Virus record (IMG/VR): IMGVR_UViG_3300026549_000075 | Span: 6,350 to 70,349 of that record | DNA: 64,000 nucleotides | From: a virus | Taxonomy: Duplodnaviria > Caudoviricetes | Direction: 5' to 3' (one strand) | Part shown: one piece after another, positions 3,392-10,523 of the stretch | Numbering within the stretch: position 1 is the first letter of the stretch | How the letters are laid out: each line of letters opens with the position of its first letter | The notes under the pieces: generated by a model | What the model was told of the DNA's origin: nothing | What the model saw: only the letters and a program-made list of their open reading frames with translations | The model's database searches: none | Position numbers and translations under genes: made by a program

Positions 3392-3426
3392 AAATAAAGA
3401 GGGGAGCAATCCTCTCTTTATTTTTT
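3392..3426 (+). terminator. Rho-independent terminator
   Basis: AAATAAAGAGGGGA-GCAA-TCCTCTCTTTATTT hairpin followed by a T-run. Confidence 0.8.
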
Positions 3427-3460
3427 AGTTTACTTATAGTTAATTATTTGTTATTATAAT
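3426..3460 (+). promoter_or_regulatory. Sigma70-like promoter (AGTTTACW class) for the tRNA array
   Basis: TAGTTTACT-N17-TATTAT/TATAAT about 15 nt upstream of the first tRNA. Confidence 0.6.
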
Positions 3461-3475
3461 AATGTATTAAATATT

Positions 3476-3551
3476 GCTACTGTAGCACAATAAGTAGTGC
3501 AATTGTTCCGTAAACAATAGGTTGTGGGGGCAGATCCTACCAGTAGCACCA
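3476..3551 (+). tRNA. tRNA-Thr(CGT), atypical
   Basis: GCTACTG/CAGTAGC acceptor stem, encoded CCA, ATTGT/ACAAT stem with loop TC-CGT-AA. C33 and a GGCAGAT T-loop are non-canonical. Confidence 0.7.
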
Positions 3552-4047: not shown

Positions 4048-4136
4048 GGTAAGTTGGTAGAGTTGGTCGATTACGCCTGTCTTGAAAACAGGAGATGTGA
4101 AAGCATCCGTGGGTTCAAATCCTACAGTGAGCGCCA
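4048..4136 (+). tRNA. tRNA-Ser(TGA) with a mismatched acceptor stem (possible pseudo or chimeric tRNA)
   Basis: CCTGT-CTTGAAA-ACAGG arm, long variable arm, T-arm and CCA are intact, but GGTAAGT/AGTGAGC forms only about 4 of 7 pairs. Confidence 0.7.
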
Positions 4137-4138
4137 GT

Positions 4139-4330
4139 AATGATCAGTAGACAAGAATTAAAAGTCACCAAGACAATAGGAGTCCCATAAAATGGAACAC
4201 TTGGAGGACCAACTCCATAATAAAGGGTGTGAAATCCATTGGGAATGCATGTGATTGAGAATATCCAAATATCGAAATTAATTTCTGGACAGCCCTTTTC
4301 GAGGCATATTCAATTGCACATCTGATCATT
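4139..4330 (+). ncRNA. Structured ~190-nt RNA candidate
   Basis: Perfect terminal helix AATGATCAG (4139)/CTGATCATT (4322-4330); internal GTGATTGAGAATAT/ATATTCAATTGCAC pairing; no ORF. Confidence 0.45.
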
Positions 4331-4486
4331 TAGGAGCATACACCTTAAAAGTATGTGGTCATTTATCCGTTCTATATCCTTAATCAAACGGATGACTCAT
4401 GACATGGATGATCCCATATCCGTCTGTAACAAAATGGATATTCTGTGTTGATGGTATCCAGAATTAAAACTAAAGACCATCTAAAT

Positions 4487-4520
4487 TAGTTTACATTATA
4501 TTTAAAAATGATATAATATA
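4487..4520 (+). promoter_or_regulatory. AGTTTACA-class promoter
   Basis: TTAGTTTACA-N17/18-TATAAT. Confidence 0.6.
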
Positions 4521-4539
4521 ATTATAGTTAACCAATTAG

Positions 4540-4704
4540 TAACCCTTATGCCGGCTATATAAAAATAAGGGAGAGCTAACCTTACGAACAAGGGGTAACA
4601 AATTAAGATTACATACAACACTACCTGGAAGGAAGTCATGATCCTCACAATTGCGACTGAGACATAAAGGAATGAAACAGGGATCTCCGGAAAGAGCAAA
4701 GGTT
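4540..4704 (+). ncRNA. Independently transcribed ~160-nt RNA candidate
   Basis: Lies between two AGTTTACA promoters, has no sensible + strand ORF, and contains CCCTTAT/ATAAGGG and AACCTT/AAAGGTT helices. Confidence 0.35.
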
Positions 4705-4706
4705 AA

Positions 4707-4740
4707 TTAGTTTACAACTATATCATAATATGATATAATG
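4707..4740 (+). promoter_or_regulatory. AGTTTACA-class promoter
   Basis: TTAGTTTACA-N17-TATAAT, exact sigma70 spacing. Confidence 0.7.
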
Positions 4741-4774
4741 AATACGTAAGATAAATAAAGATATTATCTTACAA

Positions 4775-4908
4775 AAATATAGAATTGGTGCAGTGGTAGG
4801 GATACCGTAGGCAGCAAGTATGAGAAACTCCCTGATTATTGGTCCGGACTCCGATAATTAAAGCCTCTAACCCCGGAGACACAGGTTCGATTCCTGTATT
4901 CTATATTT
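4775..4908 (+). ncRNA. tRNA-like RNA with an expanded anticodon region
   Basis: 11-bp AAATATAGAAT/ATTCTATATTT terminal stem, D-loop-like CAGTGGTAG, perfect T-arm ACAGG-TTCGATT-CCTGT, about 55 extra nt in the middle, no CCA. Confidence 0.55.
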
Positions 4909-4952
4909 AATAAGAATTTAATAAGAGATCACTTACCGAAATGTTGAAAAAT

Positions 4953-5065
4953 TAGTGTTGTCATAAAATTAGCGCAGTGGTTAAACTTATTAAAATCAAT
5001 AATAGGTAAAAGATGAGGTAACCTGGCACTGCCATATGGGTAAAGGGTTCAAATCCCTTCACAGA
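4953..5065 (+). pseudogene. Degenerate tRNA-like element
   Basis: D-loop-like TAGCGCAGTGGTTAA, CTTATTA/TAATAGG stem, T-arm AAGGG-TTCAAAT-CCCTT; acceptor stem poor. Confidence 0.35.
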
Positions 5066-5094
5066 CGTGTGTAAAATTCTTTTATCTATTTTAT

Positions 5095-5169
5095 CCTCCT
5101 GTAGTTCAATGGTTAAAACGGGCGACTTATAATCGTCAATTCCAAGTTCAACTCTTGGTGGGAGGACCA
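5095..5169 (+). tRNA. tRNA-Ile(TAT)
   Basis: CCTCCTG/TGGGAGG acceptor stem, GGCGA-CTTATAA-TCGTC anticodon arm, A73 discriminator, CCA. Confidence 0.88.
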
Positions 5170-5189
5170 TTTATTTGAAAGGATTAAAA

Positions 5190-5465
5190 ATGAAAGTACT
5201 TGCTGTAATTGATGTTATTGATTTTCCGGAAACATGTAAGCAATGTAGATTTAAACAAGGAGCACTAAATCCGGCAGATGAATTAGAGTGATTATGTGAA
5301 TTAAATGATGAGCATATTGAGCTCCATGAAGCAAGTGAGTGGTGTCCATTAAGAAAAATACCTCAGAAAGAAAGTGAAAAACATAGAGAGGAAATTGAAG
5401 ATTGGACAGGACTTGCTTATTCACAAGGTTGGAATGATTGTATTGATGAAATTATAAAGGAGTAA
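5190..5465 (+). CDS. Conserved small phage hypothetical protein (CxxC...WCPLRKIP...GWNDCIDEI); one in-frame TGA read as Trp
   Basis: AAAGGA RBS; the frame is open to TAA when TGA=W; resembles a common Firmicutes-phage family. Confidence 0.7.
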
Positions 5466-5467
5466 AG

Positions 5468-5704
5468 ATGGGAGCTTGTTATTGTTCATTAGCAGGTACA
5501 ACCGCGTGTAAAAATTGCCCTAATAATTACAGTAATAGTATAGATGATATTCATCCTAAATGGTGATCTAATTATATTTATGATAATATGCTTTCTCTGT
5601 ATCGTTCAACTAAGGAGCAGCTTGACTCTATAACTATAAAAGAAGATGAATGGGAAATTCCATCTTTTATGCTTAAAGGAGATGAATATGATAGGAAATC
5701 CTAA
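5468..5704 (+). CDS. Hypothetical protein (N-terminal CxC..CxxC); one TGA read as Trp
   Basis: Starts 2 nt after the previous stop; 78 aa to TAA under code 4. Confidence 0.55.
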
Positions 5705-5843
5705 ATACAATTATAACGATGTAGTTTCATTTAAAATTAAAGATTATAATGATGAAGAGCGTATACTTATAGGAAGTGTGTATATTTTCAAATTAGATTT
5801 AATTACCGATTCGTACACTGGACAAATAAACAAAGGGTTGTAA
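5688..5843 (+). pseudogene. Short, probably truncated hypothetical gene (MIGNPKYNYNDVVSFKI...)
   Basis: AAAGGA RBS; the 3' third of the ORF overlaps the start of the structured RNA region. Confidence 0.35.
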
Positions 5844-6914
5844 CTGCTCAGCCGTCGGTATTAAATAAAAATTGACTTTATTGCTGATAAATATCCTGGC
5901 CTAAAAGTGTACACAAGCCACGGGAGGCGAGTAGTAAAGTCATATTCCACCATCAAGTACTGAATGTTATTCAGCAGTAATGAAATATCAATATAGGATA
6001 AAGTAGTGAGACTGAGTCAGTGGACTTAATGAAGCTTGGGAACTCCAGACAAAGTAGTCTGCAAGTAGAGGTTGAGCTCTACAAATATTCGCTTCACTTA
6101 ACGCGAACAAATAAACAAAAAGGGCATAAGTGAATTAACACTGGGTGACGATAGTCTGCCGGCGGATACGATAAATGTTGTTGCTATTCGATATGCAATT
6201 AAAATAAGGTCGAGTTTATAAGAGATGCCTAAGTTGCTCATCACGTAGAGGACGAAACACAAGGACAAGAAGTCGCCCAGCCCGAGGCAGAGTCATGTGT
6301 AATATCGGGTAAAGGCGTGATTAAGGTTAATACTATACCTCTAATTAGGCCATAATGTCTCCCACGAAAGTGGTTATAAGAATCCTAGTGAGAAAAGTAT
6401 TCGTTAGTTGGCTGACGTTATATTAGGTTTGGAAGTAAGAACCCGTGCCAGAAAAAACTTCAAGTCCACTATGACTATAAACTGGATGTAACAAGGCTAC
6501 AGGTTGGAGGTAAATAGCTTATCCTGTGGAGGAGACACTCCAGAAATATACGAAATAAAACCTCATAAAATATGCCGTGTACAGAACTTGGCTGTGCGAA
6601 ATCATAATATGTGTGATTAGGTGGATTCGCCAATTGGCACCATATTGATACTGGTCACCTAATGTATCAACACACAAAATAGTCATATGTACCGTGGACT
6701 ATAACTACGGGGTTCGGTTCACGATAAACCTTACACTACAACCACGGCAGTAATGAAATATCATTATATGATAAAGTAATGAGACTAATGGTACATCGTT
6801 GTAAAAATAGTAGCGGGTCCACCTTGTAAGTTCGTGAGGACCTAAAACAGGAACTTTCAAATCCTCAAGTGGTTGTTGTAGGGCGGTTTGATGCCACCTT
6901 AGAACGTAAAGGTT
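5800..6914 (+). ncRNA. Large (~1.1 kb) ORF-free, highly structured RNA region, possibly several RNAs
   Basis: Higher GC than its flanks. Long-range helices AGTGGACTT..GAAG/CTTCAAGTCCACT, CTGGGTGAC/GTCGCCCAG, TCTGCC/GGCAGA, CTACAACCAC/GTGGTTGTTGTAG; a CCAC-GAAA-GTGG tetraloop hairpin; a duplicated 40-nt module. Confidence 0.65.
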
Positions 6915-6930
6915 ACCCACTTTTCCACAT

Positions 6931-7005
6931 CGCAGGTTAACTGGATCGGTTCCAGCTCGGGCTCATAATCCGATTAGAGAGGTTCAACTCCTCTACCTGC
7001 AACCA
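6931..7005 (+). tRNA. tRNA-Met(CAT), initiator-like
   Basis: C1:A72 mismatch, TCGGG-CTCATAA-TCCGA anticodon arm, ACCA end. Confidence 0.88.
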
Positions 7006-7043
7006 TTTGTCATTGTTAGTTTTCTTACCTCAGGATTGTAACT

Positions 7044-7080
7044 AGTTTACAATCCTCTTTTTATTTGTTACTATAATAAT
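7044..7080 (+). promoter_or_regulatory. AGTTTACA-class promoter
   Basis: CTAGTTTACA...TACTATAAT upstream of a GAGGT RBS. Confidence 0.5.
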
Positions 7081-7092
7081 AGAGGTAAAGAT

Positions 7093-7371
7093 ATGAAGAC
7101 GATTAACCTATATCCAGAAGAAAGAGAAGCATTATATAAAGATTATGAACAAGGATACTTTATTAATACTTGTAATAATTGGTTATGTCCTTTTAATAAT
7201 GATGGTATTTGTGTAATTCAAAGATCAACTGATTGCATTGATGATCCTGAATTAGATAAAGACATCGATATTTTATATGAACTGTCCAGCAGTTTGGATG
7301 AAAATGAAGTTAATTTTGCTTTTGAAGCCTGGAGAGATTTAATTATTGAGAGGTACGGGTATAATGTCTAA
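7093..7371 (+). CDS. Hypothetical protein (Cys cluster CNNWLCPF..GIC..C)
   Basis: ORF track plus GAGGT RBS. Confidence 0.7.
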   Translation: MKTINLYPEEREALYKDYEQGYFINTCNNWLCPFNNDGICVIQRSTDCIDDPELDKDIDILYELSSSLDENEVNFAFEAWRDLIIERYGYNV

Positions 7372-7657
7372 ATTAAATATTATGAATTTTAAAGGTGATT
7401 CTAAGGATCTTGATATAGATATTTATGATAAAGGTATTTCATTTATAGGAGTAACTTCAATTACAGGAGATGAACAGATAAGAGTTATTCTTAATGGTGT
7501 AAGTAAGATATATGATGCTTCACTTGAAATAGGACCATCAAGATGTACTGATTACTATGAAGGTTTTTATGATGTGTATAATATTCTTACAGGTACAGAT
7601 ATTAGAAAACAATTCCTAAAAAGAAAATGTACTGATGGAGTTTATATAGATGAGTAA
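7364..7657 (+). CDS. Hypothetical protein
   Basis: ATG at 7364 with a GAGAGG RBS, overlapping the previous stop. Confidence 0.65.
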   Translation: MSKLNIMNFKGDSKDLDIDIYDKGISFIGVTSITGDEQIRVILNGVSKIYDASLEIGPSRCTDYYEGFYDVYNILTGTDIRKQFLKRKCTDGVYIDE

Positions 7658-7701
7658 TAATTAATAATTAATTGAATACCCAAAAAGATGTTTGGTTATT
7701 C

Positions 7702-7712
7702 TGCTAAATTTA
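7702..7712 (+). promoter_or_regulatory. TGCTAAATTTA putative late promoter
   Basis: Motif recurs in intergenic DNA upstream of structural genes. Confidence 0.6.
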
Positions 7713-7730
7713 ATATAGAGGAAGATAAAT

Positions 7731-8645
7731 ATGTTAAATTATAGTGATTTAAAATTAAAATTAATTAATACTGGATATTTTATTGATAATGATTATCTTG
7801 ATAAATATTTAAATTTAATCATTAAAAATAAAGACACTTTAAAAACTTTTGGATATGAAACTCATCATATATTACAGAGAAAATATTTTAAAATTATTAA
7901 TGCTGATATAGATGAAACAGAATCTAATAAAGTTAATTTACTTTATAAAGATCATATTTTAGCTCATTATTACTTATCATTATGTACAATTAATGATTTA
8001 AAAATATCAAATATACAATGTTTTTTAATGATGACATTTTATAAAAATAAGCTAACAGATGATGAGAAAGATATTTATAGGTCATTAGATGAATATCAAA
8101 CATTATATGAAAAATGAATAATGTGACTATCAGAAAATGGTCCTAAAAGATATTCTGATGATTGATCTGAGTATAGTAGAAATCTTATAAGTAAAATGTT
8201 TAAAGGTAAACCAAAATCCGATGAACATAAAAAGCATTTAAAAGAAGCAAGAGATTATCATTCAACTACTAAAGGTAAAAAATCAATATATAATATAAAA
8301 TTAAATAAAGTTAAATTTGTATTTCCTGATGAAATAAATAAATATTTAATGACAGGAGATTGAATTATTGGTGGTAAACCTTTAAGTGATGAACAGAAAA
8401 ATAAAATATCAAATAGTAATAGTAAATCACTAAAAGGTAAAAAATCAAAAGGTTTAAATAAAGGTTTAACTCCATGAAAAGTTAAGTGTATTGATACTGG
8501 AGAAATATTTGACAGTATAAAAGATGCGTCAAATTGAATGGTAAATAATGGTTATGGATCTGGTGGTCACATAAGAGAATGTTGTGATGGTAGTAGAGAA
8601 TCCACATTTAATTTACATTGAGAATGAGTTGATAAAAATGAATAA
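7731..8645 (+). CDS. Free-standing HNH homing endonuclease with NUMOD3/NUMOD1-type DNA-binding repeats (304 aa, code 4)
   Basis: ETHHILQRK..ESNKVNLLYKDHILAHYYL; GKPKSDEHKKHL; KCIDTGEIFDSIKDA..IRECC. Eight in-frame TGA, ends at TAA 8645. Confidence 0.8.
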
Positions 8646-8662
8646 GGAGGAAAATAAAGTCA

Positions 8663-10523
8663 ATGTCAAAAGATGATAAGTTTTGTCTTATGATAGTTGA
8701 AAGTCCCTAACAAGGTTCGTACTATTTCACAGTTCCTACCACCTAATATTAAGGTTAAGGCTTCAGTAGGTCATATAGCAAAAATAAAAGATAGTGGATT
8801 ATATAATCTTGGAATTGATGTCAAAGGAAATTTTGATATTGATTTTGTAATAGATGACAAGAAAAAGGAAACAGTCAAGGAACTTAAAGAATTAGTTTCA
8901 AGAGCTGATACAGTATATGTAGCAACTGATCCTGATAGAGAAGGAGAAGCAATAGCATATCATCTTAAGAATTTCCTTAATATTCCTGTAAAGAAGTTTA
9001 AAAGAGTTACGTACCATGAAGTAACAAAGAAAGCTGTACTTGAAGCTATTGATCATCCTGGTAAATTGGATGAAAACCTGGCTGATGCTGCTTTAGCAAG
9101 AGCTTCATTAGATAAAATAGTAGGTTATAGATTAAGTCCTATAGCAAGAAATAAAGTAGGATGTAGATCAGTTGGTAGATGTCAATCTCCAGCATTAAAA
9201 CTTATTGTTGAAAGAGAAGAGGAAATAGTTAACTTTAAGTCAAAAAAGTACTATGAAATATGGTTACCATTTACAAAAAATAAACTAGAATACAAAGCTC
9301 AATTTAAAGGACTTATTAAGGAAACAAAAAATAAACCTACAATTGAAGATAAAGAATTTGCTGAAAAAGTTGTATCAGATTGTAAAGGATATCCTTATAT
9401 AGTTTATGATATTCAAAGTAATGACAGAAAGGTATCACCTAAACCACCTTTTACAACTTCAACATTTCAACAGGAAGTATCAAGTAAATTAGGGTACTCA
9501 GTTAAAGCAGCTATGACTTATGCTCAACATTTATTTGAAGGTATCAATATAGGTGGACAGCATGTAGCACTAGTTACATATTTAAGAACTGATTCAACTG
9601 AAATGGATCCTGAATTTAAAGAAACATTAAAGACCTTTATTAAAGAAAATTATGGTAAGGAATATCTCTCAGGAGATACTAAAAAGGCAAAGAAATCAAA
9701 AAATGCACAAGATGGTCATGAATGTTTTAGAGTTATTGATTTAACAATGACTCCTGAAAGATTATCAAGTTATATAGCTGATCAACAGATGATTAAGGTA
9801 TATACATTAATCTATAACAGAACTGTTGCCTCGATGATGTCAGAAGCAATCATAACAGATGTAGATTTTATTATTAAGAATGGAGCATACAAGTTTGTAT
9901 ATTCTGAACACTCCATTAAGTTTCCAGGATTCTACAAAGTGTATGATTTAGAAGAAGATATTGTACAAGGTTTAGATATTTGTGTATTAGAAAAACTTGA
10001 TGCTAAAGAACTTGAATTAAAAGAAAAGAAGACATCTCCACCTAAAAGATATTCAGAAGCAACATTAGTTAAGAAGTTGGAAGATTTAGGTATAGGTAGA
10101 CCATCAACTTTTGCAACTATTATAGGTACACTACTTGATCCTACAAGAGGATATTGTGAAGAACAAGGTAAAGCATTAGCACCTACTGAAAAAGGAATTA
10201 AATTATCACACTTCCTTGATCAAGCATTCCCTGATATAGTTAATTATGATTATTCAGCTAAAATGGAAGAATCACTTGATAAAATATCTAAAGGTGATTT
10301 AGGTAGAGTTGATTATTTAAAAGACTTTTACTCTGACCTTGAAAATCAAATTAAAGGATCTAAAGGAGTGGAGGGAGAAAAACCACAGGCAGAAATGACC
10401 GATAAAGTATGTCCTCAATGCGGAAAGCCTTTGGTAAAAAGATATGGAAGATTTGGACCATTTCTAGCATGTTCAGGTTGGAAATTTGGTAGTAAAGGAT
10501 GTAATTATACTCAAAAACTTTAG
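8663..10523 (+). CDS. topA: DNA topoisomerase I (type IA); N-terminus joined by a +1 frameshift at CCC-TAA (8705-8710)
   Basis: TOPRIM motifs IVES-P-NK, ASVGHI, ATDPDREGEAIA, GRCQSPAL, catalytic TYLRTDS, GIGRPSTFA, C-terminal zinc ribbon. The RBS/ATG frame stops after IVESP. Confidence 0.9.

Follow-up and report, generated by a model that had tools for sequence, protein, structure and literature searches.

Structured RNAs that are not transfer RNAs (tRNAs) are a known component of phage tRNA clusters. Bacteriophage T4 carries among its tRNA genes the stable RNAs C and D (species 1 and 2), which are 120-140 nt long, share a precursor with the tRNAs and are cut from it by tRNA-processing enzymes, and the same cluster also hosts a homing-endonuclease gene. 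To our knowledge, RNAs C and D have not been described as double pseudoknots, and we know of no function assigned over decades to the stable non-tRNA RNAs of such clusters, whether T4 C and D, GOLLD or ROOL. The latter two are large, pseudoknot-rich RNAs that appear to be free of protein, often lie beside tRNA genes in phages and prophages and tolerate insertions in their variable regions, with ROOL (RF03087) first found in rumen samples (PMC12286853). HDV-like (hepatitis delta virus-like) theta ribozymes are likewise known beside the tRNAs of recoded gut phages (PMC10879173). Here we describe a structured, conserved block without open reading frames (ORFs), from about 5822 to 6930 of a 64-kb stretch (the window) of a 70-kb IMG/VR phage record with an estimated completeness of 35%. 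We find that a pseudoknotted core within this block defines an RNA family absent from Rfam, and that the "giant" part around it is a patchwork of swappable modules.

Like T4 RNAs C and D, the block is non-tRNA sequence inside a phage tRNA cluster, on the same strand as at least eight tRNAs (all +) and flanked by tRNA-Ile (5095-5169) and tRNA-Met. A sequence-only reading of this stretch had placed a large, ornate and possibly new noncoding RNA at 5800-6560 inside the tRNA array, with no ORF and an elevated G+C content. The absence of ORFs is borne out for 5850-6930, where the + strand holds none longer than 44 amino acids under code 11, code 4 or TAG read as glutamine, and the G+C fraction is 0.37-0.46 over 5800-7000 compared with 0.16-0.30 in the flanks. 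The location within the array is also correct, except that small ORFs occupy 5175-5843. The predicted fold of 5880-6560 (-169 kcal/mol) has z = -2.0 on the + strand and z = -0.8 on the - strand, so that its energy is only weakly above chance, as judged against shuffled sequence, while the description of the stretch itself is accurate.

Scans with cmscan against all 4227 families of Rfam 15, GOLLD included, returned tRNAs only for the whole window at gathering thresholds, and nothing credible for 5300-7300 at E <= 10, where the sole tRNA match was tRNA-Met at 6932. Nothing credible matched four relatives of the element at E <= 1, or a 291-nt compact relative and relative L029 at E <= 10. There is thus no Rfam match to GOLLD, ROOL, OLE, RNase P, transfer-messenger RNA (tmRNA), group I or II introns, HDV-like RNAs or small ribozymes, indicating that the element is neither GOLLD nor ROOL by their models, in line with the suspicion of a new class. 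A direct search of the phage's own genome with RF03087 also gave no match, although its control scored nowhere either, making this result uninformative alone, and a search with RF01998 (group-II-D1D4-1) gave noise only. The tRNA-adjacent, insertion-tolerant organization resembles that of ROOL and GOLLD, but the conserved core here is ~110 nt (~270 nt in compact form), and it is lineage-specific modules that make the window copy large; ROOL and GOLLD are further marked by homo-oligomeric, RNA-only (cage) assembly. Blastn of 5700-7100 against 50,697 GenBank phage records (T4 assumed among them) found no similarity, which sets the element apart from T4 RNAs C and D. By these searches the family is absent from Rfam 15 and GenBank phages, a comparison that lies outside the ~8,500-candidate IMG/VR RNA catalogue (PMC10690425).

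The pseudoknotted core and its relatives

A whole-record search of phages sharing neighbouring genes gave partial matches in two IMG/VR records, the complete 175-kb G003 (locus L010:1082-1782, followed by tRNA-Ser) and G001, whose copy is cut by the contig end. Alignment shows four conserved blocks, A (6087-6167), B (6485-6600), C (6690-6740) and D (6787-6810), with replaced sequence between them. Block A and block B patterns matched only G003 and G001 in IMG/VR. A first degenerate pattern of block B, with the terminal stem left free, recovered 12 metagenome loci, and a second pattern based on other invariant parts recovered one further locus, on an 8.9-kb contig binned in a 1.7-Mb Bacilli metagenome-assembled genome (MAG). 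Since the element was not found in 105 other genomes of that MAG's order, we consider it a phage element. The four loci returned by a third pattern, in which helices S1 and S2 were left free, were not scored by model R2 and were discarded as chance matches. An exact pattern of a 40-nt repeat (see below) had no match in IMG/VR, and L002-L006, fetched via a neighbouring tail gene, share only that gene and hold no RNA homolog.

The relatives comprise 13 loci, 11 of them distinct, from rumen or gut phage contigs (metagenome, IMG/VR and one MAG contig). In 12 of the 12 loci checked, the element lies inside a tRNA cluster and on the tRNA strand, which is the ROOL/GOLLD type of location. Each record has a single copy, G000, G001 and G003 included. 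The search for homologs and covariation that the sequence-only reading had proposed has turned up relatives in other phage tRNA clusters, with compensatory base changes.

The only part conserved in all relatives is the core of ~110 nt within block B (Table 1). It runs through UAACAAG, the 5-nt 5' strand of S1, UU, GAGGU, RAAUAGCU and the 3' strand of S1, and continues with a hairpin H that varies in both sequence and length, a joiner rich in A and U, ACCUC, AUWAAAUAUGCC and a 7-bp hairpin with the loop AACUUGG. Helix S2 (GAGGU/ACCUC) crosses S1, the result being an H-type pseudoknot whose third loop contains a hairpin, and the invariant single-stranded segments are UAACAAG, RAAUAGCU, AAAUAUGCC and the AACUUGG loop. 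In the 11-sequence alignment fitted to the covariance model, standard pairs fill 95.4% of cells versus 31-52% when the 3' partners are slid. Changes on both sides are seen in 7 of 18 pairs, located in S1 and the terminal hairpin; S1 position 3 is A-U, G-C, C-G or G-U, and terminal-stem positions switch between A-U and G-C. The observed covariation score was reached in 0 of 500 shuffles, and the presence of G.U pairs indicates that the + strand is the folding strand. S2 never varies, which is compatible with pairing, although covariation does not prove it. UAACAAG was outside the first search pattern, yet it is invariant in the matches of that pattern, and AACUUGG was outside the second, yet it is present in L033, the match of that pattern. 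CAAG of UAACAAG and CUUG of the AACUUGG loop, both invariant, could pair as a further tertiary contact.

The strand order S1-S2-S1'-hairpin-S2' equals both P1-P2-P1'-P4-P2' of HDV-like ribozymes and P3-P7-P3'-P8-P7' of group I introns, so that the core could in principle be a catalytic or mobile RNA, either an HDV-like element cutting the precursor or an intron-like RNA spread by a homing endonuclease. The nested double-pseudoknot strand order, the adjacency to tRNAs and the apparent alternative code of the host phages are shared with theta ribozymes, while the 8-12 nt between S2 and S1' allow no consistent assignment of a 3-bp P3/L3 or P1.1. In addition, a 197-amino-acid ORF (L028:1708-2298; HNH motif HHIDGD...CPNCH) interrupts the RNA of one relative, separating its 5' domain from its core. 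Several details of the core do not follow either model, however. S1 has 5 bp, with A-U, U-A, G-C or G-U as its first pair, where P1 of HDV-like ribozymes has 6-7 bp and a G.U start, and the joiner before ACCUC, at the place of the short J4/2 with its catalytic C, is 13-19 nt long, A/U-rich and free of any invariant C. The conserved upstream UAACAAG is, moreover, not needed by HDV-like ribozymes. For a group I intron (RF00028), the 2-3 nt between the 5' strands of S1 and S2 leave no P4-P6 domain, and the compact forms are flanked by complete tRNAs, so that no exon is interrupted. No Rfam ribozyme or intron model matches, and the HNH matches of the L028 ORF (HNH_3, E = 8e-5; HNH, E = 9e-4) are below the Pfam curated cut-offs and come from one relative only, while free-standing HNH genes also land in tRNA clusters. 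Taken together, we consider a catalytic or mobile RNA very improbable.

Two further candidates were set aside. The segment ACAGAACUUGGCU, which we took to resemble CR-V of RNase P, belongs to a local hairpin (ACAGAAC..GGCU) whose stem covaries (GUACAG/CUGUAC, GUGCGG/CCGCAC, GCAGAG/CUCUGC), and not to a long-range P4 helix with CR-I and CR-V. A tmRNA, with tRNA-like ends and a tag frame, was found in the window neither by ARAGORN nor by Rfam.

In four compact relatives the whole element takes up ~270-360 nt between two intact tRNAs, and in L025 and L030 it fills the gap between two complete tRNAs (283 and 270 nt, respectively). Their 5' domain contains GCACUU, whose pairing partner AAGUGC comes after a stretch rich in A and 7-60 nt upstream of UAACAAG, and in the compact-form equivalent of block A one pair is changed from U-A to G-C with respect to the window. 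In the window itself, block A is the hairpin-loop pseudoknot that had been recognized from the sequence, and its loop pairing spans an A-rich linker (CAAATAAACAAAAAGGGCA, CAAAUAAACAAAAAGGGCA). The pseudoknot is conserved, since G003 and L024 have it unchanged despite diverging flanks (93% identity over 6087-6167), and 36 nt of block A are the same in the window and G003 right beside replaced sequence. Block A is unrecognizable in L029/G001, L022 and L027, indicating an accessory rather than a universal domain.

The constant location within tRNA operons also allows a reading in which the element has no function in trans but acts in cis on the tRNA precursor, with pseudoknots and hairpins that would halt exonucleases or set the sites of RNase cleavage. 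In three compact loci 5-7 nt separate the end of the terminal hairpin from tRNA-Tyr, and the AAAUAUG segment is similar to the spacer after tRNA 3' ends in L027, as such a processing or stability element might have it. Against this, the distance to the next tRNA varies (81 nt, again to tRNA-Tyr, in L023, ~125 nt in L033, ~330 nt in the window and ~375 nt in L022), the downstream tRNA differs (Tyr, Ser, Met or Asn), and there is one copy per genome despite the many tRNAs of the clusters. The invariant loops, in turn, suggest a specific ligand rather than a generic roadblock, and we regard a purely cis-acting element as unlikely.

Exchange of modules around the core

Table 1. Coordinates of the structured block, its core and the adjoining tRNA-Met in the window (MFE, minimum free energy)
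Feature	Position	Strand	Details
5' leader	5822-5870	+	A-rich motif ACAAATAAACAAA 5822-5834; hairpin GGTTG 5836-5840/CAGCC 5849-5853
M1, long local hairpin	5873-5942	+	13-bp stem GACTTTATTGCTG/CGAGTAGTAAAGTC; MFE z = -2.2
Lineage-specific insert	5946-6064	+	40-nt repeat copy 1 (5974-6013); AGTGGACTT 6019-6027; hairpin CAGAC/GTCTG 6046-6061
Hairpin GTAGAG-GTTGAG-CTCTAC	6065-6082	+	L029 has GTAGAG-GTTGAA-CTCTAC directly after M1
Block A, hairpin-type pseudoknot	6088-6134	+	stem TTCGC/GCGAA; loop TTCACTTA pairs with TAAGTGAA
Long hairpin domain	6141-6292	+	CTGGGTGAC/GTCGCCCAG; TCTGCC/GGCAGA; lineage-specific
M3	6321-6487	+	hairpin CCAC-GAAA-GTGG 6362-6373; GGTT..AACC ~6426-6444; CTTCAAGTCCACT 6458-6470
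Block B, universal core	6488-6601	+	60-145 bits by models R1 and R2 in each of the 11 distinct relatives
UAACAAG	6489-6495	+	
S1	6499-6503/6523-6527	+	
S2, pseudoknot helix	6507-6511/6560-6564	+	GAGGU/ACCUC
Variable hairpin H	6528-6541	+	AAAUAUGCC between H and the terminal hairpin
Terminal hairpin	6578-6584/6592-6598	+	loop AACUUGG 6585-6591
M5, long hairpin	6607-6680	+	GTGTGATTAGGTG...CACCTAAT..CACAC (fold)
Blocks C/D	6690-6810	+	CCGTGG 6692-6697-ACTATAA-CTACGG 6705-6710; GGTTCACGATA; repeat copy 2 (6747-6786); GGTACATCGTTGTAAAAA
3' structured module up to tRNA-Met	6811-6930	+	common to L024, L029 and G001
tRNA-Met, then intrinsic terminator	6931-7065	+	tRNA-Met 6931-7005; stem 7032-7056 + T-run (ARAGORN, Rfam, terminator scan)

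With respect to the sequence around the core, we observe that close relatives exchange whole modules. L024 is 97% identical to the window over 5871-6320 and ~85% over 6322-7080, with 277 extra nt exactly at 6321, part of which equals the segment between blocks A and B of G003. L029 keeps 5782-5945 and 6321-7400 and has 154 nt in place of 5946-6320, comprising the GTAGAG hairpin and a cloverleaf-like tRNA look-alike that is also found in G003; position 6321 is thus a module junction in both L024 and L029. G003 lacks 6168-6484 (with ~100 nt instead), 6600-6690 and 6811-6930, and its tRNA-Ser comes after block D.

Within this patchwork, M1, the hairpin at 5836-5853, CCGTGG/CTACGG and GGTT/AACC of M3 show small indications of being structured in their own right. 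Conservation of M1 is 94-97% in L024 and L029, with G5883>A in L024 turning a G.U into an A-U pair, and in the leader hairpin a T-A pair becomes C-G in both L029 and L024. M3 (85-93% identity) and M5 occur in L024, L029 and G001 and are missing from G003, while blocks C and D are conserved in G003, L029 and G001, with a T-A pair of CCGTGG/CTACGG replaced by C-G in G003. The insert at 5946-6064 is present in L024 and absent from L029 and G003. The hairpin domain at 6141-6292 is found in the window and L024 only, G003 having ~100 nt of unrelated structured sequence in its place; within the domain, A>G at 6289 in L024 keeps a pair as G.U, and double compensatory changes are absent. The 40-nt repeat (family D3) is variable in position, and its second copy is lacking in L024, L029, G001 and G003. 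The A-rich leader motif ACAAATAAACAAA occurs twice in the 64-kb window, here and at 6107.

These exchanges bear directly on the proposal that the region forms one closed giant RNA of the GOLLD/ROOL type, spanning 5939-6470 and shut by GTCATA/TATGAC and by AGTGGACTT..GAAG with CTTCAAGTCCACT. All the motifs that the sequence-only reading had listed are where it had put them: GTCATA (5939) and TATGAC (6470), AGTGGACTT (6019) and CTTCAAGTCCACT (6458), CTGGGTGAC (6141) and GTCGCCCAG (6272), TCTGCC (6155) and GGCAGA (6286), CAGAC (6046) and GTCTG (6057), GTAGAG (6065) and CTCTAC (6077), CCACGAAAGTGG (6362), TTCGC (6088) and GCGAA (6103), and the loop TTCACTTA (6093) with its complement TAAGTGAA (6127). 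The 9+4-bp complementarity between 6019-6034 and 6458-6470 exists, is kept in L024 and is used by the MFE fold. In addition, the compact relatives have a long-range helix of similar sequence, xACTT...AAGTx, at the matching place just upstream of the core, and the setting in a rumen phage tRNA cluster is like that of ROOL and GOLLD (PMC12286853).

The comparison with relatives nevertheless speaks against such a closure. L029 and G001 keep the 3' strand CTTCAAGTCCACT unchanged without the 5' strand, G003 lacks both, and L024 carries its 277 extra nt inside the supposed closure. Nor is GTCATA confirmed as a closing strand, as its GTCA (5939-5942) ends the better local 13-bp hairpin of M1. Among the 14 differences between the window and L024, none is doubly compensatory and two disrupt neighbouring pairs in the long-range MFE helix. 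By chance, about one perfect 9-bp match would be expected within 680 nt (~0.9 by our own estimate). ROOL and all other Rfam models are without a match. The helices proposed within 5946-6320 are shared by L024 alone, at 97% identity, and the GAAA tetraloop of the CCAC-GAAA-GTGG motif is not confirmed, reading AAAT in L029. A single closed fold of 530 nt is not supported, and a giant RNA of this kind seems improbable to us. Nor do the proposed limits of 5800-6560 hold, since the best conserved element (6488-6601) overruns the end. What survives of the sequence-only reading is a conserved structured RNA on the + strand that has the hairpin-loop pseudoknot and matches no Rfam family; one closed molecule of 760 nt does not fit close relatives that delete, replace or expand large inner parts, or compact relatives of ~270 nt. 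The observation is thus partly confirmed and its interpretation partly supported.

Fluid modules with tRNA-like parts could also be non-functional debris, in which decayed tRNA genes and recombination scars have passed on their G+C content and stems. The look-alike of L029 and G003, called by neither ARAGORN nor Rfam, would suit this, as would window positions 6635-6649, which resemble tRNA 3' ends plus trailer (family D8). The core, however, is conserved with compensatory changes across phages without detectable flank similarity, which makes pure tRNA debris unlikely; the 36 identical nucleotides of block A beside replaced sequence point the same way, and 5300-6930 gives no tRNA match even below threshold. 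All in all, debris is the least credible of the explanations considered here, and we give it hardly any weight. The data best fit a core under selection with peripheral modules that would be free to vary.

As for the look-alike itself (L029:1296-1388, L010:1169-1262), it has a 7-bp acceptor stem (GATTTAG/CTAAATC), a class-II-type D arm (GCGAAATAGGTAGACGC), a T arm with the loop TGCAAAT and an aberrant anticodon region. A decayed tRNA was rejected as the identity of 5300-6930, which no tRNA model scores; the L029 look-alike is unscored too, even though its fold is a four-way junction. The loop motif GACUAUAA(A)C recurs in hairpins at 6473-6483, before the core, and at 6698-6706, in block C; instead of the block C hairpin, L024 has a copy of the pre-core one. 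The stop codon of a truncated small ORF (5646-5843) sits in the loop of the leader hairpin. At 5786-5790 the window misses ~190 nt relative to L029 and to a co-occurring strain (run X1, a loose end), a loss that truncates this ORF and joins it to the RNA leader.

Transcription unit and possible role

The block ends at the last tRNA of its cluster, tRNA-Met, directly after which a 10-bp G+C-containing hairpin followed by CTTTTTATTT forms an intrinsic terminator (7032-7065) and so closes off the transcription unit. A sequence of ~33 nt with promoter-like TTTAC..17..TAYTAT occurs at both 3407-3463 and 7050-7082, that is, before the first tRNA and after the terminator of the last, and it probably stands for the promoter of the operon and, at the second site, for that of the unit that comes next.

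Contigs that span the block are present in bovine-rumen RNA libraries of three studies, among them record 18 of run X3, which equals 5956-7027 with no differences, and record 11 of run X10, which covers 5810-6589. The four RNA runs were used as Logan assembled contigs, which indicate presence only and not ends, strand, level or proof of transcription. Word depth per contig is 1727-2207 over 4158-4913 and 5956-7027 versus 53-220 in flanking genes (X1, X3), values that cannot rank genes and are not taken as evidence. Most of 7040-10500 is uncovered in X6 and X10, and uncovered parts prove nothing. Contig joints at 6576>6714 and 6743>6790 agree with the indels of relatives, but with sides of 26-30 nt they are weak alone. 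One X3 contig joins 6850 back to 4148, where the sides are alike (family D17: 4085-4107, 6844-6866), which points either to a co-occurring strain whose cluster is rearranged or to a jump of the assembly across the repeat.

On balance, we think that 5822-6930 is probably the non-tRNA part of a phage tRNA operon, encoding one or more modular, stable structured RNAs of a new family outside Rfam. Position, strand and terminator suggest that the block would be co-transcribed with the tRNAs and then cut out of their precursor by the same RNases that process the tRNAs and tRNA-like modules beside it, after which it may persist as a stable RNA. The single copy, the invariant loops and a spacing to the tRNAs that is not fixed argue for a putative role in trans, in which the rigid pseudoknot core would present these loops and so bind, during infection, a conserved component of the tRNA or translation machinery. 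Around the core, the decorated modules of the periphery would be lineage-specific and dispensable.

Several points weigh against this reading. The RNA support consists of assembled contigs, which indicate presence in RNA libraries. Module swapping argues for separable units, that is, for several molecules rather than one over 5822-6930, and parts of the block look tRNA-derived and could be decaying remnants. Furthermore, the S2 helix and the loops are invariant and so have no proof from covariation, their invariance was partly imposed by the search patterns, and there are 11 distinct sequences in all, several of them closely related.

A bolder possibility, which we hold only tentatively and consider rather doubtful, is that the core and block A are the heart of an undescribed class of phage RNA with its own activity or a dedicated protein partner, and that the modules are functional cargo. 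Were this so, examples would be a new ribozyme or a ribonucleoprotein that targets tRNAs or ribosomes as large, code-switching rumen phages take over the cell, and the cargo plugged into the common scaffold would include the HNH gene and the tRNA look-alikes. The host phages are large rumen phages that seem to switch their genetic code, and tRNA-linked RNAs (suppressor tRNAs, theta ribozymes) have already been implicated in controlling the code switch in such phages. What the family contributes to the non-tRNA RNAs of phage tRNA clusters is a core of ~110 nt that is compact, can be aligned, covaries clearly and has invariant loops, making it tractable for probing, cleavage assays, pull-downs and structure work, and a natural "deletion series" from ~270 nt to >1 kb shows which parts are dispensable.

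Other features of the tRNA clusters

Outside the block, Rfam calls two tRNAs that ARAGORN does not report, at 3476-3548 (52.9 bits) and 4048-4133 (35.8 bits). A second stretch of ~960 nt without a called tRNA lies at 4134-5094; it has T-arm-like motifs at 4881-4894 and 5043-5056 (family D2), and the sequence-only reading had marked a tRNA mimic inside it, at 4775-4908. In L024, the cluster holds a tRNA with the anticodon TCA, called as selenocysteine tRNA, which would read TGA and so fits the suspected recoding of TGA. The same L024 cluster contains a tmRNA with an unusual tag peptide on the - strand (L024:8921-9273; ARAGORN). Finally, L022 carries ~120 nt downstream of the core, before tRNA-Asn, four 36-nt direct repeats (GTGCTGGAGATATCCTGTTTTACACAGGTACCAAAC; L022:2020-2252) with a 65-66-nt period and unrelated 30-nt spacers, resembling a miniature CRISPR array, and the same region is found on the 351-kb contig L021.

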